A stretch of 64,000 bases of DNA, taken from the NCBI GenBank assembly GCA_036002305.1, contig DASYTL010000020.1:35852-99851 (forward strand). Direction: 5' to 3'. Within the stretch, counting starts at the first letter, position 1. Each line of letters begins with the position of its first letter. Position numbers and translations under genes: made by a program. The notes under the pieces were generated by a model that was not told the origin of the DNA, made no database searches, and saw only the letters and a list, made by a program, of their open reading frames with translations. Below, piece by piece: positions 36,614 through 53,272 of the stretch. This stretch comes from Candidatus Limnocylindria bacterium (GTDB lineage: Bacteria > Chloroflexota > Limnocylindria > P2-11E).

Positions 36614-37079
36614 GCGGGCCGCCTTGATCGCTATCGCGGTCGTCGCGCTCATCGGCATCGGGACGGTGGAAGGGCTCATCAGCGCGGGGCAGCTTTCGGA
36701 GCTGCCGGGCCGCGCGCGGCCCTCTTTGGGCGCCGGCGGGGTGGCATTGACGCTCCTAGGAGTCGCTCTCTCCGCGGCGGTGTACGGAGTCCTGGGCGCC
36801 GTCCTCGCGCGGAGCGAGGCCCGCCAGGCTGAGGCCATCACGTCGGGGGTGATCGCAGGCTGCTTCGCCGGGTTCATCGGCGGGGGGATCCGCGCGTTCC
36901 TGGTACGCGACTATCTCGGGAGCTTCTTCGCGGGCTCGCCAGCCCTGGTGACCTTGGTGACAGCGGCGCTGCTCGTCTTCGTCGTGCTCTCCGCGATGGT
37001 GAGCGTCGCCGCGGGTGGCGTGTTTACTTGGCTGGGCTTCCGTTTTGGTCGCCCGCGGTCGCAGCGACCTCCGCCCTGA
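36600..37079 (+). CDS. small integral membrane protein, unknown function
   Basis: Track ORF 36576..37079; ATG at 36600 or 36612. 4 predicted TM (AALIAIAVVALIGIG; GVALTLLGVALSAAVYGVLGAVL; VIAGCFAGFIGGGI; LVTLVTAALLVFVVLSAMVSVAAGGVF). High GC3. Confidence 0.65.
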   Translation: MVRRMRAALIAIAVVALIGIGTVEGLISAGQLSELPGRARPSLGAGGVALTLLGVALSAAVYGVLGAVLARSEARQAEAITSGVIAGCFAGFIGGGIRAFLVRDYLGSFFAGSPALVTLVTAALLVFVVLSAMVSVAAGGVFTWLGFRFGRPRSQRPPP

Positions 37080-38010
37080 TCCGCTCGACGACGCCCTCGC
37101 GGGAGAGCGCGACGAACGCCGAGACGATCTCGGGATCGAAACGCTCCCCCGCCCCGGACTCGATCGCTTCGAGACCCGCCTTCGCCGACCACGCCTCCTT
37201 GTACGGGCGCTTCGAGGTGAGCGCGTCGAACACATCCGCGACGGAAACGATCCGCGCGGCGAGCGAGATGTCCTCGCCCTTCTTCCCGTCGGGGTAGCCT
37301 CGGCCGTCCCAGCGCTCGTGGTGCTCCCGGGCGATGGCTCGCGCCGTCTCGAAGAACCGCGCCTCGCCGAGCATCCTCTCGCCGTCGATGCAGTGCTGCT
37401 TGATGACGCCGAATTGCTCGTCCGTCAGGTGGTGCTCGCTCTGGAGGATGTGGTCCGGCGTGTGGATCTTGCCGACGTCGTGCATGACGCTCGAGTACCC
37501 GAACTCCTCGACCAGGTCAGGTGTCAGGCCGACGCGATCCGCGATCGCTTCGACATACCCGCGCACGCGCCGGAGGTGCTCCCCGGTGGTGCGGTCCTTG
37601 ATCGTCGCGGCAAGCAGCAGGTGGCTGATGCCCTGCAGTCCGGTGCGCCGCAGCTCCTCGTTCGCGATCTGCTCCTGCTCGAGCGCTCGCTCGAGCTCCT
37701 GCCGGCGTTCGCGCTCGCTGTGGAGCATCGAGGCGAGGTCCTCCGCGTAGCGAGTCGCCTGCTTCTCCATGAGCGTCATCTGCTTGAGCTGGGATTCGAA
37801 TTCCTTGCGGACGCCCTGCTCGCGCTCGTAGACCTTGGCGAAGTCCAGGGCCATGCGCATCGCCTGGGCGTTGGCGAGGTCGGCGACGCGCACCGCCTGA
37901 TGCAGCAGCTGGCGGAAGACATCGGGGCCCTGCCCGTCCGTGGGGACGTCCGGCATGCGCGGCGAGACGTCCACAGTCTCGACGATCCCCTTGGTGTCTT
38001 CGGCGTCCAT
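37024..38010 (-). CDS. HD-GYP domain phosphodiesterase with N-terminal coiled coil (canonical metal ligands)
   Basis: 328 aa. TTGEHLRRV, VMHDVGKIHTPD, KQHCIDG, EHHERWDGRGYPDG, VADVFDALTSKRPYK. Confidence 0.9.
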   Translation of the reverse strand: MDAEDTKGIVETVDVSPRMPDVPTDGQGPDVFRQLLHQAVRVADLANAQAMRMALDFAKVYEREQGVRKEFESQLKQMTLMEKQATRYAEDLASMLHSERERRQELERALEQEQIANEELRRTGLQGISHLLLAATIKDRTTGEHLRRVRGYVEAIADRVGLTPDLVEEFGYSSVMHDVGKIHTPDHILQSEHHLTDEQFGVIKQHCIDGERMLGEARFFETARAIAREHHERWDGRGYPDGKKGEDISLAARIVSVADVFDALTSKRPYKEAWSAKAGLEAIESGAGERFDPEIVSAFVALSREGVVERIRAEVAATAGDQNGSPAK

Positions 38011-38014
38011 CGAC

Positions 38015-38386
38015 CTAGCTGTGCGCGAGAATCCCGCGGATCGTATCGATGAGCTCGAGCGGCCCGAATGGCTTCGTCAGGTACTGGGTCGCGCCCGCGG
38101 CGAAGCCGATCGCCCGGTCGCTGTCGCTCTCGTGCGCCGTGAGCATCACCACCGGGATGTCCTTCGTCGCCTCATCCGCCTTGATCTGCCGGCAGACGTC
38201 GAAGCCGTTCGGGCCGGGGCCCATATCGACGTCGAGGAGGACGAGATCGGGCTTTTCGGAGCGCACCAGGGAGAGCGCCTCGTTCCCGTTCTTCGCCTCG
38301 ACGATGGTCCAGCCCTGCGTGGACAGGGTGATGCGGACCATCTGCCGGATGGGCACCAGGTCGTCGGCCACGAGCAGCTTCGCCAT
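38015..38386 (-). CDS. single-domain response regulator (CheY-like)
   Basis: 123 aa. LLVADD, PDLVLLDVDM, VVMLTAH, YLTKPF. GGAGG lies 8 nt upstream. Confidence 0.9.
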   Translation of the reverse strand: MAKLLVADDLVPIRQMVRITLSTQGWTIVEAKNGNEALSLVRSEKPDLVLLDVDMGPGPNGFDVCRQIKADEATKDIPVVMLTAHESDSDRAIGFAAGATQYLTKPFGPLELIDTIRGILAHS

Positions 38387-38446: not shown

Positions 38447-39154
38447 TTATGACCGTTCGGGGGCAGGACCGTTTCCCCCGCGCGGGGGAGAAACTCGATC
38501 GCGGGTCCAGGACTCGAGGGTGACCAGCCCGAGACGGGCGGCCTCGGCCACGGCCTCGAGGCGCGAGTGCGCCCCGAGCTTGCGGAGCACGGCCTGCACG
38601 TGGGCGCGGAGCGTGGCGGTCGAGATCCCGAGGGAGTCCGCCGCCGCGGTGGTGCTCGTCCCGCTCGCGAGGAGCCGGAGCACCTCGAGCTCCCGGGTCG
38701 TGAGCGGCTCGATGACCTTCCGCGCGGCGGCGCTCTCCAGGAGAAGGCGCTGCAGCTCGCTCGGTGCGAAGAGGATCTCCCCGGACGCGGCGGCACGGAC
38801 GCTCTCGACGACCTCGGTCAGGCCCCGGCCCTTCGTCATATGACCGACGGCACCCGAGCGGGCGACGTCGTTGAGCGTCGCCGCCGTCGGGTCGGCGGTC
38901 AGGACCAGCACGGCCGTGTCCGGGAGCGACCCGCGGACCGCGCGCGCGAGGTCGGCGCCTGTGCCGTCGGGCAGGTGATAGTCGGCGATCACCACGTCCG
39001 GACGGTGCTCGTTCAGCGCGGCCACCGCTGCCTTGACGTCGTGCACGACCGCCTGGACCTCTATCCCGTCCGCGGCGCGCAGCGCGACGCGCATGAGCTC
39101 CGCGAAGAGACGCTCGTCGTCGACGATCACGACCCGTATCGAGTTCTCGCCCAT
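38447..39154 (-). CDS. NarL/FixJ-type response regulator (REC plus LuxR HTH)
   Basis: 235 aa. VVIVDDE, PDVVIADYHLPDG, LVLTAD. HTH: LTTRELEVLRLLASGTSTTAAADSLGISTATLRAHVQAVLRKLG. Confidence 0.9.
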   Translation of the reverse strand: MGENSIRVVIVDDERLFAELMRVALRAADGIEVQAVVHDVKAAVAALNEHRPDVVIADYHLPDGTGADLARAVRGSLPDTAVLVLTADPTAATLNDVARSGAVGHMTKGRGLTEVVESVRAAASGEILFAPSELQRLLLESAAARKVIEPLTTRELEVLRLLASGTSTTAAADSLGISTATLRAHVQAVLRKLGAHSRLEAVAEAARLGLVTLESWTRDRVSPPRGGNGPAPERS

Positions 39155-39155
39155 G

Positions 39156-40469
39156 TCACTTCCCTCCGCTCGCTCGCACTTGCGTCGCGAGCGCCGCGAC
39201 GACCGCCGCGTCGAGCTCGCCGCGCCCGACGGCGCCCTGGAGAATGCGCACCGCTTCGGCCTCGGACACCGCGGGACGGTCCGCTCGATCCGCGAGCAGC
39301 GCCTCGAACCGGTCGGCCACCGTGACGATCCGGACCTCGAGCGGGATCTGCTCGGCCCGGAGGCCGTCGGGATAGCCCGTCCCGTCGAGCCGCTCGTGGT
39401 GGTGGCGGACGATCGGCAGGAGACCCGAGAGACGCTTGAATCCGGCGAGGATCTCCTCGCCCAGGACCGGATGCCGTTCGAGCAGGGCGCGCTCCTCGGG
39501 GGTCAGCTCGCCGTCCTTCGCGAGGAGCGACGCGGGGAGGCGCGCGTTGCCGACGTCGCGCAGCAGCGCGCCCAGCCTGATCGTCATGCGCGTCGACTCG
39601 TCGAGACCGAGCGCCCGCCCGATCTGCACCGCGCGCGCCGCGACGCGCTCGGTGTAACCCGCGGTGCCGGGCCGGTCGTGCGAGGCGATGGCCGCCGCGA
39701 GCACGATCAGGGACTCGGCCGCCGACTGCAGGTCGTGTTCGAGGCTACGCTCGCGCACCACGAGGTCGACGATCCGCGGGAGGTGGGCGTCGACCGCCAC
39801 GAGCTCGCCACCGTCGGAGCCGCCGCGTCCCGCCGTGACGCGGACGATGGCGACGTCCTCCGGGGCGTCGGCCGGGAGCGCGGCGTTCCCCTCGACGATG
39901 ATGACATCGGGGGTCTCGTTCGGCTCGGCGAGGTCAAACCTCGACGAGAGGACCTTCTCGACGAGCTCGCGCAGCGCGCCGTCCGCGATGGCGACGCGGG
40001 CCACCGGCCGCTCGCCGGCGGCGCGTTCGATCGGTCGCGTGAGACGTGGCACCCGCGGGTTCCGCGCCTGCCCGAGGACAGCGTCGATGCGCGCGAGCAG
40101 CTCCGCTGCCTGGAACGGCTTCGTGATGTAGTCGGCCGCCCCGCAGGAGAGCCCGCGGACCTTGTCGACGACCTCGCCGCGCGCCGACAGGAAGATCACC
40201 GGGATCGGCGCGGTCGCGCTGTTGCTCTTGATCCGCAGGCACACGTCATAGCCGTCGGTGTCGGGGAGCATCACGTCGAGCAGGACAAGGTCCGGGAGAA
40301 GCTCCTCCACGAGCTCGATCCCGCGCCGTCCGTCGTGCGCGACCGACACGACCATCCCGTTCGCCTGGAGCCGCCGCTGCAGCACGTCAGCCGACGCCTG
40401 GTCGTCCTCCACGACGACCACGCGCGTGGCCGGCGCATCCGAGCGCATGACCTCCTCTACGATCTTCAC
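39156..40469 (-). CDS. REC - pseudo-receiver - degenerate HD-GYP protein
   Basis: Track ORF 39156..40604, trimmed to the GTG at 40469 that overlaps the upstream stop (GTGA). REC: VVVVEDD, PDLVLLDVMLPDTDG, YITKPF. The middle REC-like segment has Glu at the acceptor position (PDVIIVEGN). The HD-GYP keeps HHERLDGTGYPDG but has TAGYTERV (Tyr for the first His) and LLRDVGN (RD for HD). Confidence 0.9.
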   Translation of the reverse strand: MKIVEEVMRSDAPATRVVVVEDDQASADVLQRRLQANGMVVSVAHDGRRGIELVEELLPDLVLLDVMLPDTDGYDVCLRIKSNSATAPIPVIFLSARGEVVDKVRGLSCGAADYITKPFQAAELLARIDAVLGQARNPRVPRLTRPIERAAGERPVARVAIADGALRELVEKVLSSRFDLAEPNETPDVIIVEGNAALPADAPEDVAIVRVTAGRGGSDGGELVAVDAHLPRIVDLVVRERSLEHDLQSAAESLIVLAAAIASHDRPGTAGYTERVAARAVQIGRALGLDESTRMTIRLGALLRDVGNARLPASLLAKDGELTPEERALLERHPVLGEEILAGFKRLSGLLPIVRHHHERLDGTGYPDGLRAEQIPLEVRIVTVADRFEALLADRADRPAVSEAEAVRILQGAVGRGELDAAVVAALATQVRASGGK

Positions 40470-41242
40470 TTCTTCTTCGCCTCGTTCGCCTCGCCGAGCA
40501 GCCAGCGCATCGCCACGATGAACTTCGAGGGGCGCTCCTCGCGCGTGTTCTCCCGCAGGTAGGCGTGGAGATCGACCGCCCAGTGCGGCAGCTCGCCGTA
40601 CCACTTCATCTCGACGATGACGTTGGGCTCCATCGAGAGCAGCGAGCCGAGGGGCGACGGTTCGTCGTTCTCATCCCGCGTCTCCCAGGGGAGCGCGAAG
40701 TACATGAGGTTGTGGTCCGCGGTGATGCGGATGGACGAGTCCAGCGAGTTGTACGCGAGGCGGTTGTACTGCGTGACGACGACGGGACGCGCTCCGGCCT
40801 TGAGCAGGCGAGCGGCGCGCTCCGCGAGGCCGTGGTGGAAGTCCGGCAACGCGGCCTCGCCGCGGAGGAACGACCGCGCCACGTCCATGGGCACGCCGAA
40901 GCGCTCCTTGAGCGAGGTGTCTTCCTCGTCGTCCTTGAGCTCGATCCACGCCGTGCCCGGGTTGAGCACGTCCTGCGGGCGGGTCCGGTGGTACTCGCGG
41001 ATGCGCAGCTGCATCGCCGAGCCCTTTTCGGCCGCGCGAAAGATCGACCAGTTGATGGTGTCGCAGTAGGTCGTCGTCGACCACTGGTATGGCCGGTCGT
41101 CTCGCGAAAGCGGCAGGTTGTTCGCCGTCGTGCGCATGACGAGCCGGGCGATGCTCTCGGTGACCTGGAAGCGGTGCTCATGCCTGCGCTCGGCATCGGC
41201 CTCGTGGGCCGGGACAACGGAGGTCGTCACTTTTTTGGCCAC
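40466..41242 (-). CDS. VTC-domain (polyphosphate polymerase / triphosphate-tunnel type) protein
   Basis: 258 aa. The pattern matches bacterial VTC-domain proteins along the whole length: HEHRFQV, TTYCDTINWSIFR, QLRIREY, AWIELKDDEEDTSLKERF, VVVTQYNRLAYNSLDSSIRITADHNLMYF, VIVEMKWYGELPHW, PSKFIVAM. The GTG start is 1 nt after the upstream stop. Confidence 0.8.
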   Translation of the reverse strand: MAKKVTTSVVPAHEADAERRHEHRFQVTESIARLVMRTTANNLPLSRDDRPYQWSTTTYCDTINWSIFRAAEKGSAMQLRIREYHRTRPQDVLNPGTAWIELKDDEEDTSLKERFGVPMDVARSFLRGEAALPDFHHGLAERAARLLKAGARPVVVTQYNRLAYNSLDSSIRITADHNLMYFALPWETRDENDEPSPLGSLLSMEPNVIVEMKWYGELPHWAVDLHAYLRENTREERPSKFIVAMRWLLGEANEAKKK

Positions 41243-41243
41243 G

Positions 41244-42740
41244 CTACTCGGTCGCGTCCGCGGCCACAGCGAGGAGGCCCCGCCGGGTCAGCGCGGCGCG
41301 CACGCCGTGCTCGACATCGGCCGGGATCGATCCATCGAGCGAGCGGAGGAGCTTGTCCGGGACGGTCCCGTGCTCGGTCGCGAGGATCTCGGCCGCACTG
41401 AATCTCAGCTCGGGTTCGACGGAGGTGAGATTCGCCAGGATGCGCTGGCCGAAGACCCGGGCGGTGTGCCACGCGTTGTAGACGTATACGCCGCAGAGCC
41501 CGGTCGCGAGCGCCAGCAGCATGCGGTTGTCGTGGGCCTGCAGCCCCGCGAGCAACGCCACCGCGGCCGCGAAGTTCCCGAACGCGTTCACGCCACCCGA
41601 GAGGAACGCGCGGGCGCGGGGGCGGATGACGGACTCGACCTGGCTGTAGACGAGCTCGGTCGCCGGCCGGTGGATCGCCGGGATGACGATGCGCTCGCCG
41701 AGCTGGATCGCGAGGCCCGCGAAGAATGCGATCCCCGCCGCCGTGAACGTCGCCGCGGCGGCGGCGAAGGTCCCGAGATACCAGAGCGGCAGTATGAAGA
41801 GCACGCGGGCGATTCCGATCGAGCGGAGAAGTCCGCCCGTGATCACGCTCTGGATGAAGATCGCGACGAGCGAGGAGCTGCCGTAGACCGAGGCGTACAG
41901 CTGGCTGAACACGTCCTCGCTCTGCTGGCTGCTGCCGGCGGCCTGGGCATCGAGGCCGACGAGGAAGAGGAAGTTGCCGAACTGCATCAGGAAGTACCAG
42001 AAGAAGACGCCGACACCGAACGTGCGCAGCATCTTGTCCGACGCGACGGTGCGATAGCCGTCGGCCGAGTCCTGGAGGCTGGCGCGCAGCCCCTTCGGCC
42101 GATCTTCACCCACGCGGCTGCCGTGACCTTCCGGCAGGCCGCGATACGCGACCAGCGCGACGAAGCACACCAGGAACCCCAGCGCCTGAGCGCCGATGAA
42201 GTTCTCGGCGTGAACGAACGGCGGGAGCCCGGTGCCCAGGGCGCTGCCGATGATCTTGCCGAGCAGCACCGAGCCGGCGAAGAAGGGGAAGAGACGCTTG
42301 GACTGCTCGGCGTCGTAGAGGTTCCCGGCGTACACCCAGAAGAGGATGTAGATCGTCTCCTTCACTCCGTGCGCGAACACGTAGGAGATCGGCTGCACCA
42401 GCCAGCCGCCCGCGAACTCTCCCTGGAGCCACACGCCGACTTGGATCACGACCGAGAGCAGCGTCACGCCGGCGACGTACCAGAGGAGCAACGTCCGGCG
42501 GCGGATCCGGTCGACGAAGAAGAAGATCATCGCCGACACGGCGAGCATCACGATCGGTGTCACGATGTACATCAGGGGGATGTAGTTCACGCCCCACCGC
42601 TTCACGAAGAGGGCATCCGCCCCGACCTTCCCGACCCAGTCGGCGGCGACCATGAGCGTGAGCAGCGCGTAGAGGAAGAGCCCGAGGCCCCACTCCCCGC
42701 GCCGTAGCGGGAGGGCGTGCGCGAAGATCCCTCGCAGCAC
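41244..42740 (-). CDS. 12-TM transporter-like protein (MFS / TLC ATP:ADP-antiporter-like) with HEAT-like C-terminal tail
   Basis: 498 aa. The N-terminus LRRGEWGLGLFLYALLTLMVAADWVGKVGADALFVKRWGVNYIPLMYIV resembles the start of TLC/AAA-family carriers. About 12 hydrophobic spans. Soluble tail: ELRFSAAEILATEHGTVPDKLLRSLDGSIPADVEHGVRAAL. The family assignment is tentative. Confidence 0.7.
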   Translation of the reverse strand: MLRGIFAHALPLRRGEWGLGLFLYALLTLMVAADWVGKVGADALFVKRWGVNYIPLMYIVTPIVMLAVSAMIFFFVDRIRRRTLLLWYVAGVTLLSVVIQVGVWLQGEFAGGWLVQPISYVFAHGVKETIYILFWVYAGNLYDAEQSKRLFPFFAGSVLLGKIIGSALGTGLPPFVHAENFIGAQALGFLVCFVALVAYRGLPEGHGSRVGEDRPKGLRASLQDSADGYRTVASDKMLRTFGVGVFFWYFLMQFGNFLFLVGLDAQAAGSSQQSEDVFSQLYASVYGSSSLVAIFIQSVITGGLLRSIGIARVLFILPLWYLGTFAAAAATFTAAGIAFFAGLAIQLGERIVIPAIHRPATELVYSQVESVIRPRARAFLSGGVNAFGNFAAAVALLAGLQAHDNRMLLALATGLCGVYVYNAWHTARVFGQRILANLTSVEPELRFSAAEILATEHGTVPDKLLRSLDGSIPADVEHGVRAALTRRGLLAVAADATE

Positions 42741-42745
42741 GGTCG

Positions 42746-44293
42746 CTAGGCTCCGGAAGCCCCGCGCTCGCCGGCGGGCAGCGTGAACTGCACGATCGCT
42801 CCAGTCTCGCCGGGGTTCACGACGCTGATGCTGCCGCCGTGGAGCTCCACGGCGAGCTTGCAGAACGCGAGCCCGAGCCCGGTCCCGCCGCGGCTGCGGC
42901 CGGCGCCCTGGTAGAAGCGGTCGAAGATGTGCGGCGCGTCGGCTGCCGCGATGCCGGGTCCGGTGTCGTGGACGCGCACGACGACCGAGCCCTCGAGGCT
43001 CCGGTCGCGCGCGCTATCGATGCGGACCTTGCCGCCGCTCGGCGTGTGCTTCACCGCGTTCGCGAGCAGGTTCGTGAGCACGCGCACGATGAGCCCGTCG
43101 TCGACGAACACGTTGACATCCTGCGGGAGCGCGCTTTCGAGACCGATACCTTTCGCGAGCGCCTCGGGCGCGACCTGCGCGATGCTGCGTTCCCCGAGCG
43201 CGGACAGCGCGATGACCTGAGGCATGGCCTCGAGCTTGCCCTCCTCCATTTTGTAGACGTCGAGGAGCGCGTTGACCATCCGCAGCAGCTCGCTGATATT
43301 CGACTCGGACAGCCGGAGGAGCTCGTCGAATTCCTGGCGGCCCGGCTCGAGCTGACCCATCCGCACGAGCTGCATGAACGCGACGACGCTGTTGGCGAGA
43401 TTGCGGATGTCGTGACCGAGCATGCCGATGAGCTCTTTCCGCGATTGCTCCATGCGCTGGAGGTCGGCGGCGGTCTTGCGCAGCTGGTCCTGCAGGCGCT
43501 TCGTGAAGATCGCGCTCCGCACCCGCGCCGCGAGCTCGATCGGCTCGAACGGTTTGGCGATGTAGTCGATGCCACCCACCTCGAAGCCTTTGCTCACGTC
43601 TTCCGACCGGTCCTTCGCGGTGACGAAGATCACCGGAATGTCGGCGGTCTCGGGCTGCGACTTGAGACGGCGGCAAGCCTGCAGGCCGTCCATGCCCGGC
43701 ATCATGACGTCGAGCAGGATCAGGTCGGGCTGCTCCGTGCGCGCGAGCGCGATCGCCCGTTCCCCGGAGCTCGCGACCTGCGTCTGGCAACCGATCGCCT
43801 CGAGGCGCCGAGCGAGGAGCTCCACGTTCGCGATCTCGTCGTCGACGATGAGCACCTTCCCGAGCGGGATCGGAACTGGCCCCCGGATGGTCGGTGCGCC
43901 GTCGCGGGAGGCAGGGACCTGCGCGGCGCCGCCAGGGAAGTAGCGGAGGAGGATGGCCCGAAGCTCAGCCGGAGCGAAGGGCTTGGACACGAAGTCGTCG
44001 CAGCCCGCTTCGATCGCCCGCGCCCGATCCGATGGGAGCGCGAGCGCCGACACGGCGATGATCGGGATGCTCGCCGCCCACGGCTCAGCGCGCAGCGATC
44101 GCGTGAGGCTCCAGCCGTCCATGCGCGGCAGGAGCAGGTCGACGAGGACCGCGTCGGGGCGCTCGACCCGGGCGAGATCAAGCCCGGCGACGCCGTCAGC
44201 GGCCACCAGGGCCTCGTGCCCGGAGGCGCGGATGATCCGCGACGCGACGTCCAGGTTGTTGGCGTCGTCCTCGACGACCAGAACCCGCGCCAC
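42746..44293 (-). CDS. hybrid REC-REC-HisKA-HATPase histidine kinase
   Basis: 515 aa. REC1: VLVVEDD...DAVLVDLLLPRMDG...FVSKPF. REC2: VLIVDDE...DLILLDVMMPGMDG...YIAKPF. H-box LIGMLGHDIRNLANS. N, G1 and G2 boxes: [27 protein letters not shown]. Confidence 0.9.
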   Translation of the reverse strand: MARVLVVEDDANNLDVASRIIRASGHEALVAADGVAGLDLARVERPDAVLVDLLLPRMDGWSLTRSLRAEPWAASIPIIAVSALALPSDRARAIEAGCDDFVSKPFAPAELRAILLRYFPGGAAQVPASRDGAPTIRGPVPIPLGKVLIVDDEIANVELLARRLEAIGCQTQVASSGERAIALARTEQPDLILLDVMMPGMDGLQACRRLKSQPETADIPVIFVTAKDRSEDVSKGFEVGGIDYIAKPFEPIELAARVRSAIFTKRLQDQLRKTAADLQRMEQSRKELIGMLGHDIRNLANSVVAFMQLVRMGQLEPGRQEFDELLRLSESNISELLRMVNALLDVYKMEEGKLEAMPQVIALSALGERSIAQVAPEALAKGIGLESALPQDVNVFVDDGLIVRVLTNLLANAVKHTPSGGKVRIDSARDRSLEGSVVVRVHDTGPGIAAADAPHIFDRFYQGAGRSRGGTGLGLAFCKLAVELHGGSISVVNPGETGAIVQFTLPAGERGASGA

Positions 44294-46617
44294 TAGTGGC
44301 TCCCGGTCCGGGTCAGCAGAGCGGCCTCGCTGCCGGCGCGCACCCGGATGGGCAGCGTGAAGTGGAAGGTGCTGCCCCGGCCGACTTCGCTGTCGACCCA
44401 GATGCGGCCGCCGTGCAGCGTGACCAGGCGCTTCGAGATCGCGAGGCCCAGGCCCGTGCCCCCGTACCTGCGGGTGGTCGAGCTGTCGGCCTGCCGGAAC
44501 TCGTCGAACACATAGGCCTGCGCCTCGGGGCTGATGCCGACGCCGGTGTCGGCGACCGATACGGTCACCCAGCCTTCCGCCGCGCTGGCGGAGACGGAGA
44601 CGGAGCCGCGCTCCGTGAACTTCACCGCGTTGGCGAGCATGTTCGCGAGGATCTGGCGGATCCGGGCACGGTCGGCCCAGACGTTCGGCAGCCCGGGCGG
44701 GATGAGCGAGCGCACCTCGAGGCCCTTCTCGTCGGCGTGCGGGCGTACGAGCTCGAGCGCCTCGTCGGTGACCTCGGTGATGTTGACCTCTTCGACGTTC
44801 AGCTCCATCTTGCCGGCTTCGATCTTGGCGAGATCGAGCAGCCCGTTGATCAGGCCGAGCAGGTTGTCCGCGGCCTGCGCCACCCGGAAGAGGTCCGTGG
44901 TCTGTTGCGCGGTGAGCTCGCCGTCGAGGCCGTCGAGCATCAGCTTCGTGTAGCCGATGATCGCGTTCATCGGCGTGCGGAGCTCGTGGCTCACGCTCGC
45001 CAGGAACTCGCTCTTCAGGCGGTTGGCGCGCTCGAGCTGCAGGTTGTTCACGCGCAGCTCGCCGACGAGATCGGCGTTCTCGTTCGCCACCGACACCAGA
45101 CGGGCAATGGTCCGCAGAGCGCGGGCCTGCGTGTCGGTGATGTCGCGCTGCTCGCGGAAGTACGCCGAGAGCAGGCCGATCGTGCGGCCCCGGGCTGAGA
45201 GCGGGACGTGCGCGACGAACCGCAGGTCGCCGGCGGACACGGCCGACAGCCGGATGCGGTCGGCGTCCGCCTCGGAGCGGACCAGCACGCGCATGGCGAG
45301 CGTGACGGCGGTCTCGGGATCGATGCCGACCGTCGCGGGCGCGTTAAGCCGTCCGCCGGATCCGGGCGGGGCGCCGGGCGGGTCCTCCCGGATGACGATC
45401 GCGCCGCCGTCGGCATTGAGGAGGGACACCATGCGGTCGAGGGAGCGCGCGAAGATGCGCTCTGCGTCGGTGACGCCGACGACGGCGTCGGCGACCTCGT
45501 TCACCGCGCGCACCTCGTCGAGGTACTCGCGCTGCGCACGTTCGCGTTCGTACAACGACGCGGCCATCGTGTCGAAGGCGCGTTCGAGCGTGCCGATCTC
45601 GTGCGGCGACACCTGCTGTACGCGCGCGGCGAGGTCGCCCGCCTCGATCCGCTGCGCCGCCGCCGCGAGGTTCTCGAGCGGCTGGGTGATGCTCCGCGCG
45701 GTGCGGTACGCGAGCAGCGTGACCACTCCCACGAGCCCGAGGCCGACGAGCAGCAGGATGCCGAGGAGAGTCCGTTGCGCCTGCTCGACCGGGTCGGTCG
45801 GGACGAGCACGGCGAGGATCCCGGGGTTCTGACGCTGGGACCGGATCACCCGGAAGATGCCGTAGTAGTTCTTGTTGTTCGCGGTCAGGTTCTCGATGAG
45901 GACGTCCCGCAGCTGCGCGTCGACCTGCTCCGTCGTGGGGAACATCGTGTTCGAGCCGAAGTCGACGGTCGAGGCGCGCACCTGGCCGTTCCAGATCAGC
46001 GCGAGGTCGGCGTCCGACCGCGTCTTGATCGCCTTGAGGAAGTCCGAGTTCAGGAGGTTGCCGACCTCCATGATGCCGATGTAATCGCCGTCGGCGTTCC
46101 GGATCACGAAGATCGCGCGGATGACGAGGCCGTCCGGCTCGTCGTAAAGCACCCACTGCTGCTGGGCCCGCGCCTTCGCGTACGTCACGAGCTCGGGCTC
46201 GAGCGTCTTGTTCCTGTTCTCCTGGGCGCCCGCGATGATCACGCCTTCCTTGTCGGCGATGTTCATCACGTTGACGCCGAGGCGTGACTTCATTGGGAGG
46301 AGGAAAGCCTGGATGCCCTCGATGTCGCGCTGCTCGGTGAGCTCGCGCGTCGTCGGCAGCCCGGCGGCCAGCGCAGCGGCTCTGGTCGCGACCAGGGCCT
46401 GGTCGTCGATCTCGTTCCTGGCGACGTCGGCGAGGATCGCCGACTCGTCCTCGAACTGGCTCAGGATGAGCTGGTAGGACTCGTAGATGGCGACGCCCGT
46501 CACGATGACGAGCGCGAGGACGCTCACCAGCACGTTGCGGCTGACGAGCGCCCTCAGCAGGCTCGGTGCGAAGAGCTTCTGCATGGCCCGAGCTGAGCCT
46601 TCCTCCTCGACGATCAC
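44293..46617 (-). CDS. sensor histidine kinase: TM - extracytoplasmic Cache/PDC-like domain - TM - HAMP - GAF-like - HisKA - HATPase
   Basis: 774 aa (GTG at 46617, or ATG at 46584 giving MQKLF). HAMP: [25 protein letters not shown]-box [18 protein letters not shown]. ATPase boxes: [26 protein letters not shown]. Its stop overlaps the next gene's start by 1 nt. Confidence 0.9.
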
Positions 46618-46632: not shown

Positions 46633-47487
46633 TTAGAGTCCGGCGAGGATCTTCTGGCCTTCCGGTCCCTTCACGAAGTCCAGAAAAGCCCTGATCGCCG
46701 GCTTCAGCTTGGTCGGATCGGCGTCGTAGACGAAGTAGAGCGGCCGGCGAACCTTGTATGTGCCGCTGTTCAGGTTGTCGCGCGTCGCAGCGACGCCGTC
46801 GATGGTCGCGAAAGCGATCTGCGAGTTCCCGAAGGTGCTCGCGTTCATCGTGACCATGCCGATGGACTCCTTGAACGAGTTGATGGCCTTAACTGTCTCG
46901 TCGATCGTGGTCACCTCGATCGCTGACGGCGCGTACGTCGGCTTCTTGCCGTCGTAGAAATACGTCTCGAAAGCGCTCCGCGTCGACGAGCCCGGCTCGC
47001 GGATGAGCACGCGGATCTTGCCCGGCGTCCCGCCGACGTCCTTCCAGTCGGTGATCGTGCCGGTGAAGATCTTCGCGACCTGGTCCTTGGTCAGCGCCTT
47101 CACCGTGTTCTGCGCGCTCACGGCGACGGCCGTGCCGCTCGCGCCGATGGCGAGCGCCTCGACCTTCCCCTTCTCGGCCTCACGGAGGTCGCGGCTGATG
47201 TAGCCAAGATCGATCTCGCGGCTCACCGCGAGGCTCACGCCTGCGTCCGAGCCGATGTCCGCGAGGCCCTGCCAGGTGATCGTGGGGTGAAGCTTTTGGA
47301 ATCCGTCGGCGAGCGCCCTCACGTTGTCGAGCGCACCACCTCCACCGTTCACGATGTATTGTCCGCCGAGCGGGTCCGGAGTCTTCGCCGGCCCGACCGG
47401 CAGCTGACCTCCACAGCTCGCGGCGAATCCCGCGGCGGTGATCAGCAATGCGGCTGTCCGCAAAGAGCGCATTCGGGCCCTCCTCAT
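46633..47487 (-). CDS. PstS-like (PBP_like_2) phosphate-binding-protein homologue, lipoprotein
   Basis: 284 aa. An internal ATG at 47472 has AGGAGG 6 nt upstream and gives MRSLRTAALLITAAGFAASCGG (lipobox). GSDAGVSLAVSREIDLGYISR, GTITDWKDVGG, REPGSSTRSAFE, GTYKVRRPLYFVY. No pstCAB genes nearby. Confidence 0.85.
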   Translation of the reverse strand: MRRARMRSLRTAALLITAAGFAASCGGQLPVGPAKTPDPLGGQYIVNGGGGALDNVRALADGFQKLHPTITWQGLADIGSDAGVSLAVSREIDLGYISRDLREAEKGKVEALAIGASGTAVAVSAQNTVKALTKDQVAKIFTGTITDWKDVGGTPGKIRVLIREPGSSTRSAFETYFYDGKKPTYAPSAIEVTTIDETVKAINSFKESIGMVTMNASTFGNSQIAFATIDGVAATRDNLNSGTYKVRRPLYFVYDADPTKLKPAIRAFLDFVKGPEGQKILAGL

Positions 47488-47596: not shown

Positions 47597-47649
47597 CCGA
47601 CACCGAAAGTGAACCAAAACCGTCCGCCCGCGCGCAATACTCTCGGCCG

Positions 47650-48729
47650 GTGAGCGAAAGAGACGCGACGCTGCGGCGGCAGATCCTGCCCGCGACCCGT
47701 CTTGCCGATGTCGACGTCCGCGGCCACCGCCAGGTCCTTCCGCTCACCCTGGCCGCCGCTGTAGGTATCGCCGCCGTCTGGCTCGTGGACATCTCCACCG
47801 GACCCGAATTCGGCTTCGCGATCTTCTATCTCATCCCGATCGGGCTGGCGAGCTGGTGGCTCGGCCGGGCCCCGGCGGTATTCATCGCTCTCCTCTCGAC
47901 CATCGCCTGGATCTGGGCGGATCTGATCGCCCGGGCGGCCGTGTCCTTCTCGGCAAGCCTCTGGAACGGTCTCACGCGCGCGGCCATCTTCATCCTGCTC
48001 GCCCTCCTCATCGACCAGGTGCGTCGCGAAAGGATCGCCCTCCGCAGCGTCGACGCCCACCGGGAGGAGTCGCTGGCGCTTATCGCGCACACCTTGCGGC
48101 GATCCGCTGGCGAGATCGAGTCCGCGATCCCGGATCTCACGAGGGCGCCCGCGCTCTCCGCCGCGGAGCGTAGCGCCATCGACGAGCTGCGCCGGCAGAA
48201 CCGCAACTTCAAACGGTTCGCCGATGACGTGCTCGAGGTCGGCCAGCTCGAAGCGGGCCGCTTCCGCCTGAATCGCGGGCGATTCGACCTCGCGGAATTC
48301 GTCGCGGTGCTCGCGAAGGAGACCGAACGGGATCGCCTGCAGCTCGTCGCGGAATCCGATCCGGTGTGGGTCGATGCCGATCCCGAGCGTCTGCGAACCG
48401 CGATCGAGCACCTCCTCAACAACGCGCTCCGATTCTCTCCTCCGGGCTCCGCGGTACACGTGACGGTCGGCCACCGCGGAGGTCGTGCCCGCATCACGGT
48501 GAAGGATCAGGGCGTCGGGCTCGCGAAGTCGCACCTCGGAGTGATCTTCAAGAGATACGGGCGGGTGGACACGGAGGCGACCAGGGACAAGATCGGCGTC
48601 GGCCTCGGCCTCTACGTGACGCGTCTCATCGTCGAAGCGCACGCCGGAACGGTCTCGGCGAGCAGCGTCGGACTTGGCCTCGGATCGACGTTCACCATCG
48701 AGCTTCCGCTGGCGTCGTCACAGCCCTGA
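47650..48729 (+). CDS. membrane histidine kinase (DUF4118-like TM sensor plus HisKA plus HATPase)
   Basis: Track ORF 47287..48729, trimmed to GTG at 47650. TM region FAIFYLIPIGLASWWLG (KdpD-type DUF4118-like). Unusual H-box LALIAHTLRRSAGEI. LLNNALRFSP, DQGVGL, GVGLGLYV. Confidence 0.85.
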   Translation: MSERDATLRRQILPATRLADVDVRGHRQVLPLTLAAAVGIAAVWLVDISTGPEFGFAIFYLIPIGLASWWLGRAPAVFIALLSTIAWIWADLIARAAVSFSASLWNGLTRAAIFILLALLIDQVRRERIALRSVDAHREESLALIAHTLRRSAGEIESAIPDLTRAPALSAAERSAIDELRRQNRNFKRFADDVLEVGQLEAGRFRLNRGRFDLAEFVAVLAKETERDRLQLVAESDPVWVDADPERLRTAIEHLLNNALRFSPPGSAVHVTVGHRGGRARITVKDQGVGLAKSHLGVIFKRYGRVDTEATRDKIGVGLGLYVTRLIVEAHAGTVSASSVGLGLGSTFTIELPLASSQP

Positions 48730-48751
48730 ACCGCGTCCGATAGCCACGCCG

Positions 48752-49120
48752 ATGGCGAAGATCCTCGTGGTCGAGGACGAGCCCAACAACCTCGAGCTGG
48801 CGCTCCGCATCGTGCGGCACGCCGGGCACGAGGCCATCGTGGCGACGAACGGGTTCGCGGCGCTCGAGCTCGCGCGGGAGCACCGCCCGGATCTGGTCCT
48901 GCTCGACCTTCAGCTCCCGAAGCTCGATGGTTGGACCGTGGTCCGCCTGCTCCGCAAGGAGCAGTGGGCCACCGGTGTGCCGATCATCGCTGTCTCCGCG
49001 TCGGCGAGCCCGGGCGACGAGTCGAAGGCGCTCGAAGCCGGGTGCACGGAGTTCCTCTCGAAGCCTTACTACCCGGCGACCATGCGCGAGCTCCTGCTCC
49101 GTTACCTGCCGGCTCCCTGA
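48752..49120 (+). CDS. single-domain response regulator
   Basis: Track ORF 48674..49120, trimmed to ATG at 48752. 122 aa. ILVVEDE, PDLVLLDLQLPKLDG, FLSKPY. Roughly 55-60 percent identical by hand alignment to REC1 of the hybrid kinase at 42746..44293. Confidence 0.9.
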   Translation: MAKILVVEDEPNNLELALRIVRHAGHEAIVATNGFAALELAREHRPDLVLLDLQLPKLDGWTVVRLLRKEQWATGVPIIAVSASASPGDESKALEAGCTEFLSKPYYPATMRELLLRYLPAP

Positions 49121-49562: not shown

Positions 49563-50234
49563 TTGACTCGGGAGGGTCCGCGCGCCAGCGTGACGAGCGT
49601 GATGGCGGCGCTCCTCTCGGCCATCGTGAGCGCGATTTTCGCGGTCGTCATGGGGCTCCGGTACCTGCGCCGGCACCGCCCGCATCAGCTCACGTGGACG
49701 ATCGGCCTCGCGATGTTCGCCGCGGCCGCGATCGCGGGCATGCTCGCGCGGGCCGGCGGCGCGACGGAGGCGGAGTACCGGATCTTCTATCTCTTCGGCG
49801 CGATCCTGAACGTCGCCTGGCTGGCGCTCGGCACGCTCTTCCTGCTCGCGCCCCGCGTCGCGCGCTGGGCACTCCTGGGCGTGCTCGCCCTCAGCGCCGT
49901 CGCCGTCGTCGCCGTCTTCACGAGCCCGGTCAACATCAACGCCGCGGTCGACACCGGCCGTGGATTCGAGCAAGCTCCGCTGCCGCGGATCTTGGCCGGC
50001 GTCGGGAGCGGCCTCGGAAGCCTGGTGCTCATCGGCGGCGCGATCTGGTCGGCGTGGCTGTTCCTGCGCCGAAGGCATGACGGTCGCCGAGCGCTCGGCA
50101 ACGTCATCATCGCCCTGGGGGTGTTCGTCGCGGCCGCGGGCGGGACCGCCGCCTTCACCGGGGCGAGCGGCATCGTCGAGTGGACGAACTTCGCCGGGGT
50201 CACGCTCATCTTCATCGGGTTCCTGCTCGTGTAG
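49563..50234 (+). CDS. integral membrane protein, unknown function
   Basis: 223 aa, about 6 TM. The start is uncertain (TTG 49563, GTG 49590, ATG 49602). Confidence 0.6.
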   Translation: MTREGPRASVTSVMAALLSAIVSAIFAVVMGLRYLRRHRPHQLTWTIGLAMFAAAAIAGMLARAGGATEAEYRIFYLFGAILNVAWLALGTLFLLAPRVARWALLGVLALSAVAVVAVFTSPVNINAAVDTGRGFEQAPLPRILAGVGSGLGSLVLIGGAIWSAWLFLRRRHDGRRALGNVIIALGVFVAAAGGTAAFTGASGIVEWTNFAGVTLIFIGFLLV

Positions 50235-50266
50235 CGCCGTCCGGCAAGCCCTGCGAGCATGCTCGG

Positions 50267-51250
50267 GTGCTCGTCCTCTCGCGGTCGGACGTGGAACGTC
50301 TTCTCGATCCCGACCTCCTGCGTGCCGGCGTCGCGCGGGCGATGGCCGACCTCTCCGCCGGGCGCGCATCCATGCCCGCGCGGATCGCGGCGAACGTCCC
50401 CGAGCACGATGGTCTCCTCGCCGCGATGCCCGCGTACCTGCCGTCGTCGGCCGCCCTCACGACGAAGCTCGTCTCGCTCTTCCCACGGAACACCGACCGC
50501 CCGACGCATCAGGCCGTGATCCTCGTCTTCGACGCGAAGCACGGGACTCCGGTCGCGCTCATGGACGGCGAGGCGATCACCGCCGCGCGAACGGCCGCGG
50601 CCTCGGCGCTCGCGACGGACCTCCTGGCCCGGCGCGACGCGAGCGTGCTCGCGATCGTCGGGACCGGAGTGCAGGCGCGGTCGCACCTGCGCGCGGTCCC
50701 GCGCGTGCGCGATTTCCGTGAGGTCCGGATCGCGGGTCGCCACGCCGAGAACGCCGCGGCGCTCCTGGCGGAAGCCCGCGAGTGGCTACCGCGAGCGAAC
50801 GTCCGCGTCGCCGACTCGTACGCGCAGGCGGAGGACGGCGCCGACGTGATCTGCGCCGCGACGCACTCGCCCGAGCCGGTGGTGCGCCGCGAATGGATCG
50901 CGCCCGGCACTCACGTCACGTCGGTCGGCTACAACACCGCCGGCCGCGAGGTCGACGCCGCGACGTTTCGCGACGCCCTTCTGGTCGTCGAGTCGCGCGC
51001 CGCGGCGCTCGCGCCTCCGCCCGCGGGATCGAACGACATCGCGATGGCGATCGCGGAAGGAGCGATCACCCGCGAGCACGTGCACGCCGAGCTCGGCGAG
51101 CTCGTCGCCGGCACACGACCGGGGCGCGCGACCGCGGAGCAGATCACTCTCTACAAGTCGGTCGGGGTCGCCGTGCAGGACGCGGCGGCTGCGGCGATGG
51201 TGCTCGAGGCGGCGCTGCGCGCGCGAGCCGGCCGCGAGGTGGAAATCTAG
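50267..51250 (+). CDS. ornithine cyclodeaminase / mu-crystallin family oxidoreductase (candidate delta1-pyrroline-2-carboxylate reductase)
   Basis: Track ORF 50180..51250, trimmed to GTG at 50267. 327 aa. VLSRSDVERLL, KLVSLFPRN, GEAITAARTAAASALAT, Rossmann LAIVGTGVQARSHL. Confidence 0.85.
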   Translation: MLVLSRSDVERLLDPDLLRAGVARAMADLSAGRASMPARIAANVPEHDGLLAAMPAYLPSSAALTTKLVSLFPRNTDRPTHQAVILVFDAKHGTPVALMDGEAITAARTAAASALATDLLARRDASVLAIVGTGVQARSHLRAVPRVRDFREVRIAGRHAENAAALLAEAREWLPRANVRVADSYAQAEDGADVICAATHSPEPVVRREWIAPGTHVTSVGYNTAGREVDAATFRDALLVVESRAAALAPPPAGSNDIAMAIAEGAITREHVHAELGELVAGTRPGRATAEQITLYKSVGVAVQDAAAAAMVLEAALRARAGREVEI

Positions 51251-51312: not shown

Positions 51313-52143
51313 CTAAGAGACGGCGATCCTGGGGCCTCGGCCGAGACGGCACCCGGTGTCGAGGAGGACGCTCGAGACCCACTCGTCTCCGACCCTCGTC
51401 TCCACCCGGTACGGCGACGGCTGGCCGGCGTCGAGCGCGGCGACGACCTCGTCGGAGATGCCGAGGACGACCCACGCGACCGCGGTCGGCTCGCCCTCGA
51501 TGATCCGCGCGTGCCCCTTCTGCCCGGACGCGAGCGGGATGCACTTGCGCGTCTCGACGACGTTGTCCTTGCGGTCGAGAAGCCGGACGGACGCCGGGAC
51601 GAGCTCGGCCGTCCCACCCTCGAGCTGCAGCCAGTGGCGATCGCCGTCGTCATGGATGCAGAAGCGGAACGGGACCTTCGGCAGGAGGCGCGGCGCGGGA
51701 AGCGGTGCGGTCCCGGGGACGGCCGGTACGAGCGCGCGAACCGCGACGACGATCTTCTCGGCGGCTTCGTGCAGCGAGGCGTGGCCGCCGAGCGCCTTCG
51801 CGCCGTATGCGAGCTCCAGCGTCGCGCGGGCGATGTCGCCGATCGGGAGCATGAATTCGATGTAGCGGGCGTACTCGCTCGCCGCGCCGTCGAGGTCGCC
51901 GGCGTTCGCGAGCATCGCCGCGAGGCGGCGGTGCGCGCCAAGGTCGGTCGGAGAAATCGCCACGGCGGACCACATGAGCGCGAGGGCCGCGACGCGGTTG
52001 CCGGCCTGCGTGAGCATCGCCGCGCCGTCCTTGAGCGAGTCGAGGTCGGACCGGCTCTTCTCGATCTCAGCCAGATCCGTGGGGTCGGCCGAACCGGCGG
52101 GATCGTCGCCGTCTACGGGACGCAGGCCCAGATCGTCGCTCAT
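51313..52143 (-). CDS. hypothetical protein with helical-repeat N-domain paralogous to ORF 1153..2634
   Basis: 276 aa. NRVAALALMWSAVAISPTDLGAHRRLAAMLANAGDLDGAASEYARYIEFML...LELAYGAKALGG. The C-terminal half is beta-rich (FRFCIHDDGDRHWLQLEGG). Confidence 0.6.
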   Translation of the reverse strand: MSDDLGLRPVDGDDPAGSADPTDLAEIEKSRSDLDSLKDGAAMLTQAGNRVAALALMWSAVAISPTDLGAHRRLAAMLANAGDLDGAASEYARYIEFMLPIGDIARATLELAYGAKALGGHASLHEAAEKIVVAVRALVPAVPGTAPLPAPRLLPKVPFRFCIHDDGDRHWLQLEGGTAELVPASVRLLDRKDNVVETRKCIPLASGQKGHARIIEGEPTAVAWVVLGISDEVVAALDAGQPSPYRVETRVGDEWVSSVLLDTGCRLGRGPRIAVS

Positions 52144-52234: not shown

Positions 52235-53272
52235 ATGCCGCTCGAGGGTGGCCGCGCGTCCCGCTGGCAGCCTCCATCGTCGTGGCGGCGCATCCGGACC
52301 GTCGAGTCCCACGCGGCGGGCGAGCCGCTGCGCGTGATCGTCGAGGGGCTCGACCCGATCCCGGGCTCGACGATCCCCGAGAAGCGCCGCTTCGCCCGCG
52401 AGCGCCTCGACGGGCTCCGGCGCGCGCTGCTGTTCGAGCCGCGCGGCCATGCCGACATGTACGGGGCCATCCCGACGGAGCCGGTCGCGCCGGACGGCGA
52501 CCTGGGCGTCCTGTTCCTGCACAACGAGGGCTGGAGCACGATGTGCGGACACGGCGTGATCGCGCTCGTGACGGTCGCGCTCGAGACCGGGCTCCTGGCA
52601 CCGCGCGAGGTCGTGCGCATCGATACGCCCGCCGGCCGCGTGACGGCGCGCGCGCGGCGCGAGGGGTCGCGGGTGCGAAGCGTGGCGTTCGAGAACGTGC
52701 CCTCGTTCGTGGAATCCCTGGACGAGAGCGTGGACGTACCTGGCATCGGCCGCGTGCGCTACGACCTGGCGTTCGGCGGCGCCTTCTACGCGTTCGTCGA
52801 CGCCGCCAGCGTCGGCCTCGAGATGACCCCGGAGCGGTTCCGCGACCTGATCGCGGCCGGGACGGCCATCAAGCGGGCGGTGACGGCGTCGCGCGAGGTC
52901 CGCCATCCGCTGGAGCCCGACCTCTCGTTCCTGTACGGGACGATCTTCACCGGCCCCGCCCTCACGCCCGGAGCGCAGTCGCGGAACGTGTGTGTCTTCG
53001 CCGAGGGCGAGGTCGATCGGTCTCCGACCGGGACCGGCGTCTCGGCGCGCGTCGCGATCGAGCGCTCACGGGGGCGGCTTGTCACCGGGTCGCCTTTCGT
53101 CGTCGAGAGCATCATCGGCACACGCTTTGTGGGAAGGATCGCGCGCGAGCTCGAGTGGGAGGGGTACGACGCCGTCGTGCCGGAGGTCGAGGGGAGCGCC
53201 TGGATCACCGGCCGGAGCGAGCTCGTTTTCGCGCCGGACGACCCTCAGGGGGAGGGGTTCATCCTGCGCTGA
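52235..53272 (+). CDS. proline racemase superfamily enzyme, Cys/Thr type (predicted trans-3-hydroxy-L-proline dehydratase)
   Basis: 345 aa. ESHAAGEPLRV. First catalytic position STMCGHG (Cys104, 52544-52546). Second position DRSPTGTG with Thr265 (ACC at 53027-53029) instead of Cys. Confidence 0.85.
   Translation: MPLEGGRASRWQPPSSWRRIRTVESHAAGEPLRVIVEGLDPIPGSTIPEKRRFARERLDGLRRALLFEPRGHADMYGAIPTEPVAPDGDLGVLFLHNEGWSTMCGHGVIALVTVALETGLLAPREVVRIDTPAGRVTARARREGSRVRSVAFENVPSFVESLDESVDVPGIGRVRYDLAFGGAFYAFVDAASVGLEMTPERFRDLIAAGTAIKRAVTASREVRHPLEPDLSFLYGTIFTGPALTPGAQSRNVCVFAEGEVDRSPTGTGVSARVAIERSRGRLVTGSPFVVESIIGTRFVGRIARELEWEGYDAVVPEVEGSAWITGRSELVFAPDDPQGEGFILR

Follow-up and report, generated by a model that had tools for sequence, protein, structure and literature searches.

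A Vtc4-like tunnel protein and a facultatively linked NTT/TLC-like carrier in a probable phosphate-type signalling operon of Candidatus Limnocylindria (Chloroflexota)

Yeast Vtc4p is a protein of the VTC domain family, which belongs to the triphosphate tunnel metalloenzymes (TTMs). Among the TTM enzymes compared by Martinez et al., polyphosphate (polyP) was made by Vtc4p only (PMC4641920). The hydrolytic TTMs possess an acidic patch (Glu-2, Glu-4, Glu-90, and Glu-171 in AtTTM3) that constitutes a second metal site and is lacking in Vtc4p, while K458 of Vtc4p has been named as the catalytic lysine and is dispensable to hydrolysis by AtTTM3 (PMC4641920). The R264A/R266A/E426N variant is the standard for catalytically impaired Vtc4, and the eukaryotic polyP channel is built from the transmembrane (TM) helices of the Vtc subunits themselves (PMC9911596). 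With regard to carriers, the NTT-HEAT fusions of free-living bacteria are functionally uncharacterised and show an association with cyclic nucleotide monophosphate (cNMP) binding (Major, Embley & Williams 2017, PMC5381601). Here, we describe a gene for a soluble VTC-domain protein and, immediately ahead of it, a gene for an NTT/TLC-like carrier in a stretch of 64,000 nucleotides from a Candidatus Limnocylindria bacterium (NCBI GenBank assembly GCA_036002305.1, contig DASYTL010000020.1, positions 35,852 to 99,851 of the forward strand), referred to below as the window, in whose own coordinates all positions without a locus number are given.

An earlier reading of this DNA, made from the letters alone (the sequence-only reading), had proposed that the two proteins form a split module for synthesis and translocation of polyP or for nucleotide supply. 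The pairing instead proves to be a single junction within an apparently lineage-specific operon of Candidatus Limnocylindria (Chloroflexota), probably for phosphate-type signalling, and not a dedicated two-gene machine. The operon comprises nine tightly packed, co-directional genes on the minus strand, in the order PstS-like binding protein, membrane sensor kinase (HK1), REC-REC kinase (HK2), carrier, VTC protein, REC-HD-GYP protein, LuxR-type regulator, CheY, and HD-GYP protein, so that the carrier is the fourth gene and VTC the fifth; the successive junctions measure 15, -1, 5, 1, 17, 1, 60, and 4 nt. The VTC gene is a core gene, being present in every operon found by the VTC search, and linkage of the carrier to it is facultative. 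Our preferred reading, to which we give a probability of about 0.55, is that the operon specifies a phosphate-responsive phosphorelay together with a cytosolic Vtc4-type phosphotransfer enzyme and a facultatively linked accessory carrier.

The distribution of the operon was examined by a scan with a VTC alignment, in which one genome per species was taken and 67 loci were returned; the scan patterns are specific to this VTC/carrier subfamily, and the statements on distribution hold within it. Nearly all of the 67 loci are titled Limnocylindria or Chloroflexota, and a single gene order is found throughout, wherever the sequence extends; separate look-ups gave a concordant result. The REC-HD-GYP gene comes next after VTC in every locus with enough downstream sequence. 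Upstream of VTC, the sequence is readable in 58 species loci, 43 of which contain the carrier, always between HK2 and VTC when it is in the operon, and 15 of which lack it. In these 15 operons, HK2 directly abuts VTC, mostly through an ATGA overlap (-4). In a neighbour-joining tree of the VTC proteins, the carrier-less state makes up one large clade plus four scattered loci, and the carrier occurs in all major clades.

A reverse scan of metagenomes with the carrier alignment yielded 156 loci, of which the best 80 were kept and 70 have room downstream. VTC is the next gene in 42 of these 70 carrier loci, and no operon gene is present in the other 28, which represent a group of 66-70% identity located among housekeeping genes (cytochrome b/Rieske, GltD-like oxidoreductase, DUF402, and succinyl-CoA ligase). 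In all three metagenome-assembled genomes (MAGs) checked, a carrier-less operon is accompanied by a carrier on another contig (DASYUY01, loci L028 and L154; VBFY01, L031 and L159; JBIOUD01, L055 and L169), and this off-operon carrier, roughly 68% identical, is located behind a gene with tetratricopeptide (TPR) repeats. Simple loss of the carrier from some genomes was considered and rejected, because these three MAGs show its relocation or retention elsewhere. In the carrier tree, which was also built by neighbour joining, all stand-alone carriers fall into a single clade within the diversity of the operon carriers. A stand-alone copy from a clade-D genome is placed in this clade and apart from the carriers encoded in clade-D operons. 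This topology suggests an old duplication followed by differential loss, or a replacement, more than a single recent move. The pair is kept beyond chance in one lineage (43/58, in the same order), but the linkage is not obligatory (15/58 operons without the carrier, and 28/70 carriers without VTC).

The junction of the two genes was read directly. The VTC/TTM open reading frame (ORF; 40466-41242, minus strand) encodes 258 amino acids from a GTG start, and the carrier ORF (41244-42740, minus strand) encodes a polytopic protein of 498 amino acids. The sequence TAG(41246-41244)-C-GTG(41242) leaves a gap of 1 nt, and the downstream protein matches PF09359, so the earlier statement that a soluble VTC-domain ORF starts 1 nt past the stop of a 498-residue polytopic protein is correct. 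The identical VTC protein at NCBI (P0121) has 254 amino acids and corresponds to the second GTG, at 41230. Because the residues ahead of this codon (KKVTT) are kept among VTC relatives, translation from the first GTG (41242) or from an earlier start codon is plausible. The carrier-to-VTC gap lies within -14 to 13 nt given the choice of start codon and is tight in every case. A gap of 1 nt as a sign of special coupling was rejected: it is ordinary for this operon, because the other junctions are similar (-1 to 17 nt, with one of 60 nt) and because, in carrier-less operons, the VTC start overlaps the end of HK2. The LuxR gene likewise begins 1 nt past the preceding stop. Of the translational coupling that had been claimed, the 1-nt gap stands, but it is not particular to this pair, as VTC is equally tight on HK2 without the carrier.

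The phosphate-type character of the operon is suggested by its first gene (46633-47487, minus strand, as are all operon genes that follow), which encodes a PstS-family periplasmic binding protein, probably a lipoprotein (Pfam PBP_like_2, E=2e-28), and which heads the operon in related loci too. In the PDB, it comes closest to 4q8r and 4gd5 (E about 1e-26), both of which are phosphate-binding proteins, and its motif REPGSSTRSAF aligns to REDGSGTRDAF, with the anion-binding GSxTR position matched. The second gene (44293-46617) encodes HK1, a membrane sensor histidine kinase with the Pfam architecture dCache_3-HAMP-GAF-HisKA-HATPase, whose hydrophobic segments (residues 29-47 and 284-302) lie on either side of the periplasmic domain. 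HK2 (42746-44293) is a soluble hybrid kinase (REC-REC-HisKA-HATPase in Pfam) with no TM segment, and its start overlaps the stop of HK1 by 1 nt. Beyond the carrier and VTC, the REC-HD-GYP gene (39156-40448; Pfam Response_reg plus HD_5/HD) encodes a response regulator fused to an HD-GYP phosphodiesterase domain; its ATG at 40448 has GGAGG ahead of it and is located 17 nt past the VTC stop. Then come a LuxR/NarL-type response regulator (38447-39154; REC plus GerE helix-turn-helix in Pfam), a single-domain CheY-like receiver (38015-38386; Pfam Response_reg), whose gene is the most conserved of the operon (69-99% identity across loci), and a stand-alone HD-GYP protein (37024-38010; Pfam HD_5/HD, with HHERWDGRGYP in the translation) as the last gene. 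The Pfam domains of these neighbours bear out the two-component operon setting that had been described. Scans with Rfam and for tRNAs and terminators found no RNA element and no internal terminator between the operon genes, and no Vtc1-like gene was found in the operon by Pfam or in related loci.

Several known systems resemble the sensory part of this operon. TorT/TorS and LuxP/LuxQ are pairs in which the sensor kinase depends on a binding protein, and Pst/PhoR provides a logic of phosphate sensing. The likeness to these systems lies in a gene for a PstS-like binding protein located directly ahead of one for a membrane kinase whose periplasmic part is of the double-Cache type. The differences are that PstCAB permease genes are absent from the operon and that it additionally encodes another kinase, which is soluble, as well as three receiver proteins, a TTM enzyme, and two enzymes of the HD-GYP type.

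Some further observations concern the sensory and output genes. In one clade, a second PstS-like gene (44-46% identical to the first) is present past the last HD-GYP gene (L004, 12298-13158; L042, 14271-15101; also L044 and L045). The HHExxDGxGYP motif is kept in both HD-GYP proteins (37024-38010 and 39156-40448), and no gene for GGDEF or another cyclase is present in the operon. Divergent from the binding-protein gene are a histidine kinase gene (about 47600-48729, plus strand) and a gene for a single receiver (48674-49120, plus strand), the latter sharing 58% identity with the first of the two receiver domains in HK2; a similar opposite-strand receiver, with a kinase match in some loci, is found upstream of the operon only in the clade of the window itself.

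The tunnel protein carries the enzymatic part of the argument. It matches the Pfam VTC family (PF09359) with E=6.6e-20 and 72.1 bits (cut-off 23) over residues 20-247, which correspond to profile positions 2-233 of 235. This is its single Pfam domain; no hydrophobic segment is present, and the SPX domain and the C-terminal TM helices of Vtc4p are absent. In the AlphaFold (AF2) model (pLDDT 88.8, pTM 0.86), a closed beta-tunnel with a C-terminal helix is predicted. The best Foldseek match of this model is yeast Vtc4p (3g3r; E=6e-14, TM-score about 0.6), and the top 13 matches are all Vtc4, Vtc3, and Vtc2 chains, followed by the hydrolytic TTMs (YgiF, AtTTM3, CyaB-type cyclases, and thiamine triphosphatase) at E-values of 1e-7 to 1e-5.

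The tunnel Lys, Arg, and Glu residues of Vtc4 that the homologue profile covers are kept in the alignment, and the loss of catalytic residues that would have spoken against the sequence-only reading was not seen. A profile of 28 homologues maps R86 to R264 of Vtc4p, R88 to R266, E101 to E279, K103 to K281, K112 to K294, R114 to R296, Y159 to Y359, R161 to R361, R172 to R373, E211 to E426, K213 to K428, S239 to S457, and K240 to K458. Among these homologues (51-88% identity), eleven of the mapped residues other than E101 are invariant and K240 is nearly so; E101 is invariant or nearly invariant, and R86, R88, K103, R161, R172, E211, and K240 are each at least 90% conserved. In the N-terminal part, hhalign against residues 189-480 of a partly verified Vtc4 sequence (96% probability) places R24 at K200, E22 at T198, and R19/R20 at R196, and a profile of the N-terminal 90 residues against the PDB retrieved no Vtc4 chain and only spurious helical-repeat matches. 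With regard to the acidic patch of AtTTM3, an inferred mapping, not a structural superposition, puts Lys at Glu-171, Arg at Glu-2, and a retained Glu at Glu-4.

The protein thus shares with yeast Vtc4p (PDB 3G3Q/3G3R) the Pfam family, the predicted eight-stranded tunnel with its basic residues, the Glu that binds metal, and the Lys of catalysis. It differs from Vtc4p in its low identity (about 20%), in being a stand-alone soluble protein of 258 residues without SPX domain, TM helices, or Vtc1/2/3 partners, in apparently having Arg for K200 and Glu for T198, and in being encoded in a bacterial two-component operon. With the hydrolytic CYTH/TTM proteins (E. coli YgiF, AtTTM3, CyaB, and thiamine triphosphatase), it has in common the superfamily fold and a Glu in beta-1, but its matches to them are weaker, and by the inferred mapping it has Lys for the Glu two past the metal Glu and Arg for the first beta-1 Glu. 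Since K240 (K458 in Vtc4p) is kept, K213 is located two past the metal Glu as in Vtc4p, and the two-metal acidic patch is incomplete, the alignment favours, not decisively, Vtc4-type phosphotransfer over hydrolysis. In addition, tblastn of the VTC protein against a plasmid collection gave no match.

The preferred reading may be put as the following sequence of events. The lipoprotein would bind phosphate or a similar oxyanion and report to HK1, and a relay via the REC-REC kinase would control the LuxR regulator (transcription), CheY, and the two HD-GYP proteins (cyclic-dinucleotide turnover). The tunnel protein would be co-expressed and would act as a cytosolic enzyme on ATP, triphosphate, or polyP with a divalent metal, probably by a Vtc4-type transfer of the gamma-phosphate of ATP onto Pi, PPi, or polyP. 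Its product would stay cytosolic, because there is no SPX domain and no channel. The carrier would be an accessory transporter of the NTT-HEAT clade, co-regulated when it is in the operon and not an obligatory partner of VTC.

A number of points weigh against this reading. All loci come from MAGs or from contigs of metagenomes, and a few bear other taxon names; the trees carry no support values. The phosphate ligand is assigned from the family of the binding protein, which scores 121.8 bits against TIGR02136, below the cut-off of 206.6. In the tunnel protein, an invariant beta-1 Glu (E22) stands where Vtc4p has Thr, and an invariant R24, a conservative change, stands at K200 of the Vtc4 sequence used, both resembling hydrolytic TTMs; this Vtc4 sequence was verified over segments 261-383 and 421-469, as printed by HMMER, and against the residue numbers in print. 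The basis of the AtTTM3 mapping counts here too. The searched literature on bacterial VTC-domain proteins and DUF4956 contained no functional study or biochemical data, in line with the earlier statement that such proteins are uncharacterised. Finally, the carrier is retained in the genome in all three MAGs with a carrier-less operon, and because both genes are kept in these genomes, a looser functional link between VTC and carrier without co-transcription is possible.

The best-surviving alternative, which we regard as possible but rather unlikely, is that the tunnel protein hydrolyses its substrate, as a tripolyphosphatase, a short-chain polyphosphatase, or an NTPase, or that it lacks catalysis and, as a sensor of polyP or tripolyphosphate (PPPi), modulates HK2 or REC-HD-GYP. 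Hydrolytic TTMs carry an ExExK motif, and the VTC protein has R-x-E-x-R in beta-1, where the Glu is invariant and matches that of ExExK and an Arg apparently takes the place of K200. A role beside the kinase or the HD-GYP protein would also suit the position of the gene, which is always between HK2 (or the carrier) and REC-HD-GYP, and most characterised TTMs are hydrolytic, Vtc4p being the sole polyP producer among those compared (PMC4641920). This alternative is opposed by K213, which corresponds to K428 of Vtc4p and not to the Glu of the hydrolase patch, and by the retention of the Lys458 equivalent, a residue that is dispensable for hydrolysis by AtTTM3 (PMC4641920). In Foldseek, moreover, Vtc4, Vtc3, and Vtc2 beat the hydrolases by 6-7 orders of magnitude in E-value.

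The second protein of the pair is a 12-helix NTT/TLC-like carrier of the major facilitator superfamily (MFS) with a short HEAT-like C-terminal tail. Against Pfam and NCBIfam, it matched no family even at E=10, the TLC (PF03219) and HEAT models included. By an exhaustive phmmer search (E about 1e-25, 25-30% identity), it aligns to the N-terminal 400-470 residues of proteins of 870-1130 amino acids, in which TLC (PF03219) and/or MFS_1 are followed by HEAT_2 and sometimes by cNMP_binding. Its AlphaFold model (pLDDT 84.6) contains 12 long helices and short helix pairs at residues 443-497. The best Foldseek matches are the cryo-EM structures of NTT1 from Arabidopsis and Chlamydia, namely 9j3l (AtNTT1, TM-score 0.70), 9j3m, and 9j3n (CpNTT1), with TM-scores of 0.63-0.70 at 11-12% identity, and generic MFS proteins come next. 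A profile of the carrier orthologues alone matched no solved NTT or other structure among the PDB sequences, while a mixed profile that includes intermediate relatives (A2) matches 9j3n_A at E=1.8e-20; because the orthologue-only profile found nothing, the link to NTT depended on intermediate relatives and on fold comparison. These phmmer, AF2, and Foldseek results uphold the earlier description of the 498-residue protein as a TLC/MFS-like carrier. The HEAT-like tail described with it is likewise recovered, as the helix pairs at 443-497 and as a phmmer match that reaches the first HEAT_2 of the relatives (query 5-486 on P0277 4-475, where HEAT_2 begins at 452), even though the Pfam HEAT models are unmatched. 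Conservation among the orthologues is strong: numerous charged residues within the membrane are invariant, and the HEAT-like tail is kept (orthologue alignment A3).

No relatives closer to the carrier were detected than the NTT-HEAT fusions, with which it shares the N-terminal 12-helix domain and a match into the first HEAT repeat. It differs from them in length (498 residues, in which the HEAT-like part amounts to just one or two helix pairs, against 870-1130 residues with long HEAT arrays) and in context, being encoded in the kinase/VTC operon or beside a TPR gene, whereas the relatives often have cNMP-binding domains or neighbours. The NTT1 proteins of plastids and Chlamydia (TLC, PF03219; PDB 9J3L and 9J3N) are the best structural match of the carrier model and are linked to it via intermediates, but the identity to them is 11-12%, and the host appears to be a free-living soil bacterium. 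Outside the lineage, the two closest relatives examined have cNMP-binding genes alongside, not VTC.

Two side observations belong to these relatives. The closest long NTT-HEAT relatives adjoin small cNMP-binding proteins (7897-8316 in L170; 36-491 and 3131-3598 in L172). Taken with the HD-GYP genes of the present operon, carriers of the NTT-HEAT clade recur beside nucleotide second-messenger proteins.

The proposal that VTC and carrier form a physical two-part machine, in which the carrier exports (oligo)phosphate or imports ATP or nucleotides and docks via its HEAT-like tail, appears improbable on this evidence. It can call on the fact that the two genes adjoin each other in a constant order (43 of 58 species operons; 42 of the 70 carrier loci from metagenomes), on the presence of both genes in the genome even when unlinked (3/3 MAGs), on the intact tunnel residues and the conserved HEAT-like tail, and on the family of the carrier, whose characterised members move ATP, ADP, and Pi and whose fold is closest to NTT1. 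Set against this, the position and coupling of VTC are unchanged without the carrier, and the carrier pairs with a TPR-like protein in 38 loci. The carrier-only profile has no significant match to a solved NTT, and the Foldseek alignments show 11-12% identity. Nor is a bacterium living free in soil known to have an evident pool of ATP outside the cell. The pairing of the two closest outside relatives with cNMP-binding genes accords with the association already described for the NTT-HEAT clade (PMC5381601) and counts against such a machine as well. A dedicated module of VTC and carrier, as put forward by the sequence-only reading, is thus not borne out: VTC is equally tight on HK2 in 15 of 58 operons, the carrier is off-operon in three MAGs and behind the TPR gene in 38 loci, and two outside relatives flank cNMP genes. 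The related idea that polyP is synthesised and then translocated via the carrier fares no better, because an alternating-access (rocker-switch) MFS fold does not thread polymers and is no plausible polymer conduit, the eukaryotic channel consisting of Vtc TM helices (PMC9911596); the gene distribution weakens it further.

A bolder combination, to which we attach slightly less credence than to the two-part machine, is that of a PPK-independent, channel-less, cytosolic Vtc4-type polyP polymerase placed in a phosphate phosphorelay with HD-GYP outputs, whose nucleotide or oligophosphate substrate or product is moved by the NTT-HEAT carrier. Least probable of all is that the carrier serves as a transporter-like co-sensor (a 'transceptor', cf. 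UhpC for UhpB) informing HK2, with the VTC adjacency being incidental: HK2 has no input domain beyond its two receiver domains, an in-operon carrier directly follows it, and the NTT-HEAT relatives are repeatedly linked to cNMP-binding signalling proteins (PMC5381601), but the carrier is dispensable for the integrity of the operon and is found elsewhere beside the TPR protein, direct evidence of sensing is lacking, and the conserved core with its invariant charged intramembrane residues fits transport as well as sensing.

The TPR-like protein beside the stand-alone carriers, named UP, may be the other partner of the carrier. An orthologue of UP is located immediately ahead of the carrier wherever the latter sits outside the operon, and this adjacency was found in 38 loci (5074-5961 in L154, and 37 others), with UP about 40 nt upstream. 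The protein consists of a TPR_19-like N-terminus, a Pro-rich linker, and a C-terminal domain of roughly 110 amino acids, for which no Pfam or PDB match was found. UP was also considered as a divergent VTC protein, and this was rejected, the gene product being a TPR protein with an unmatched C-terminal domain. The window has a UP gene of its own (51313-52143, minus strand; tblastn, 61% identity to the UP of L154) with no carrier beside it; its neighbour on that side is a convergent OCD_Mu_crystall gene.

In the same part of the window, UP is flanked by genes of the ornithine cyclodeaminase/mu-crystallin and proline racemase families (50180-51250 and 52235-53272, both on the plus strand), and a cyclodeaminase gene is also located near the operon in the carrier-less locus L001. 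In addition, a weaker second match to the TPR-like N-terminal part of UP (41% over 155 amino acids) is present at 1789-2238 on the minus strand.

Through this operon, a Vtc4-like enzyme whose tunnel is intact is found in a defined regulatory context, made up of a pair of kinases, a pair of HD-GYP enzymes, and a PstS-like sensor. This setting leads to predictions of induction by phosphate status, of polyP or oligophosphate chemistry, and of a link to cyclic-dinucleotide turnover, and it could bring to light a second bacterial route to polyphosphate. The lineage is recurrent in soil metagenome assemblies but uncultured, and the natural carrier-in and carrier-out variants of its operon provide a ready comparison for whether the two proteins need each other. 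The Vtc4-like enzyme within a phosphorelay/HD-GYP operon and the mobile, NTT-HEAT-derived carrier are both moderately interesting, since the literature searched describes no characterised bacterial function for either family. If the tunnel protein were a PPK-independent polymerase and the carrier moved its substrate or product, this would be the first function for both bacterial VTC proteins and NTT-HEAT carriers.

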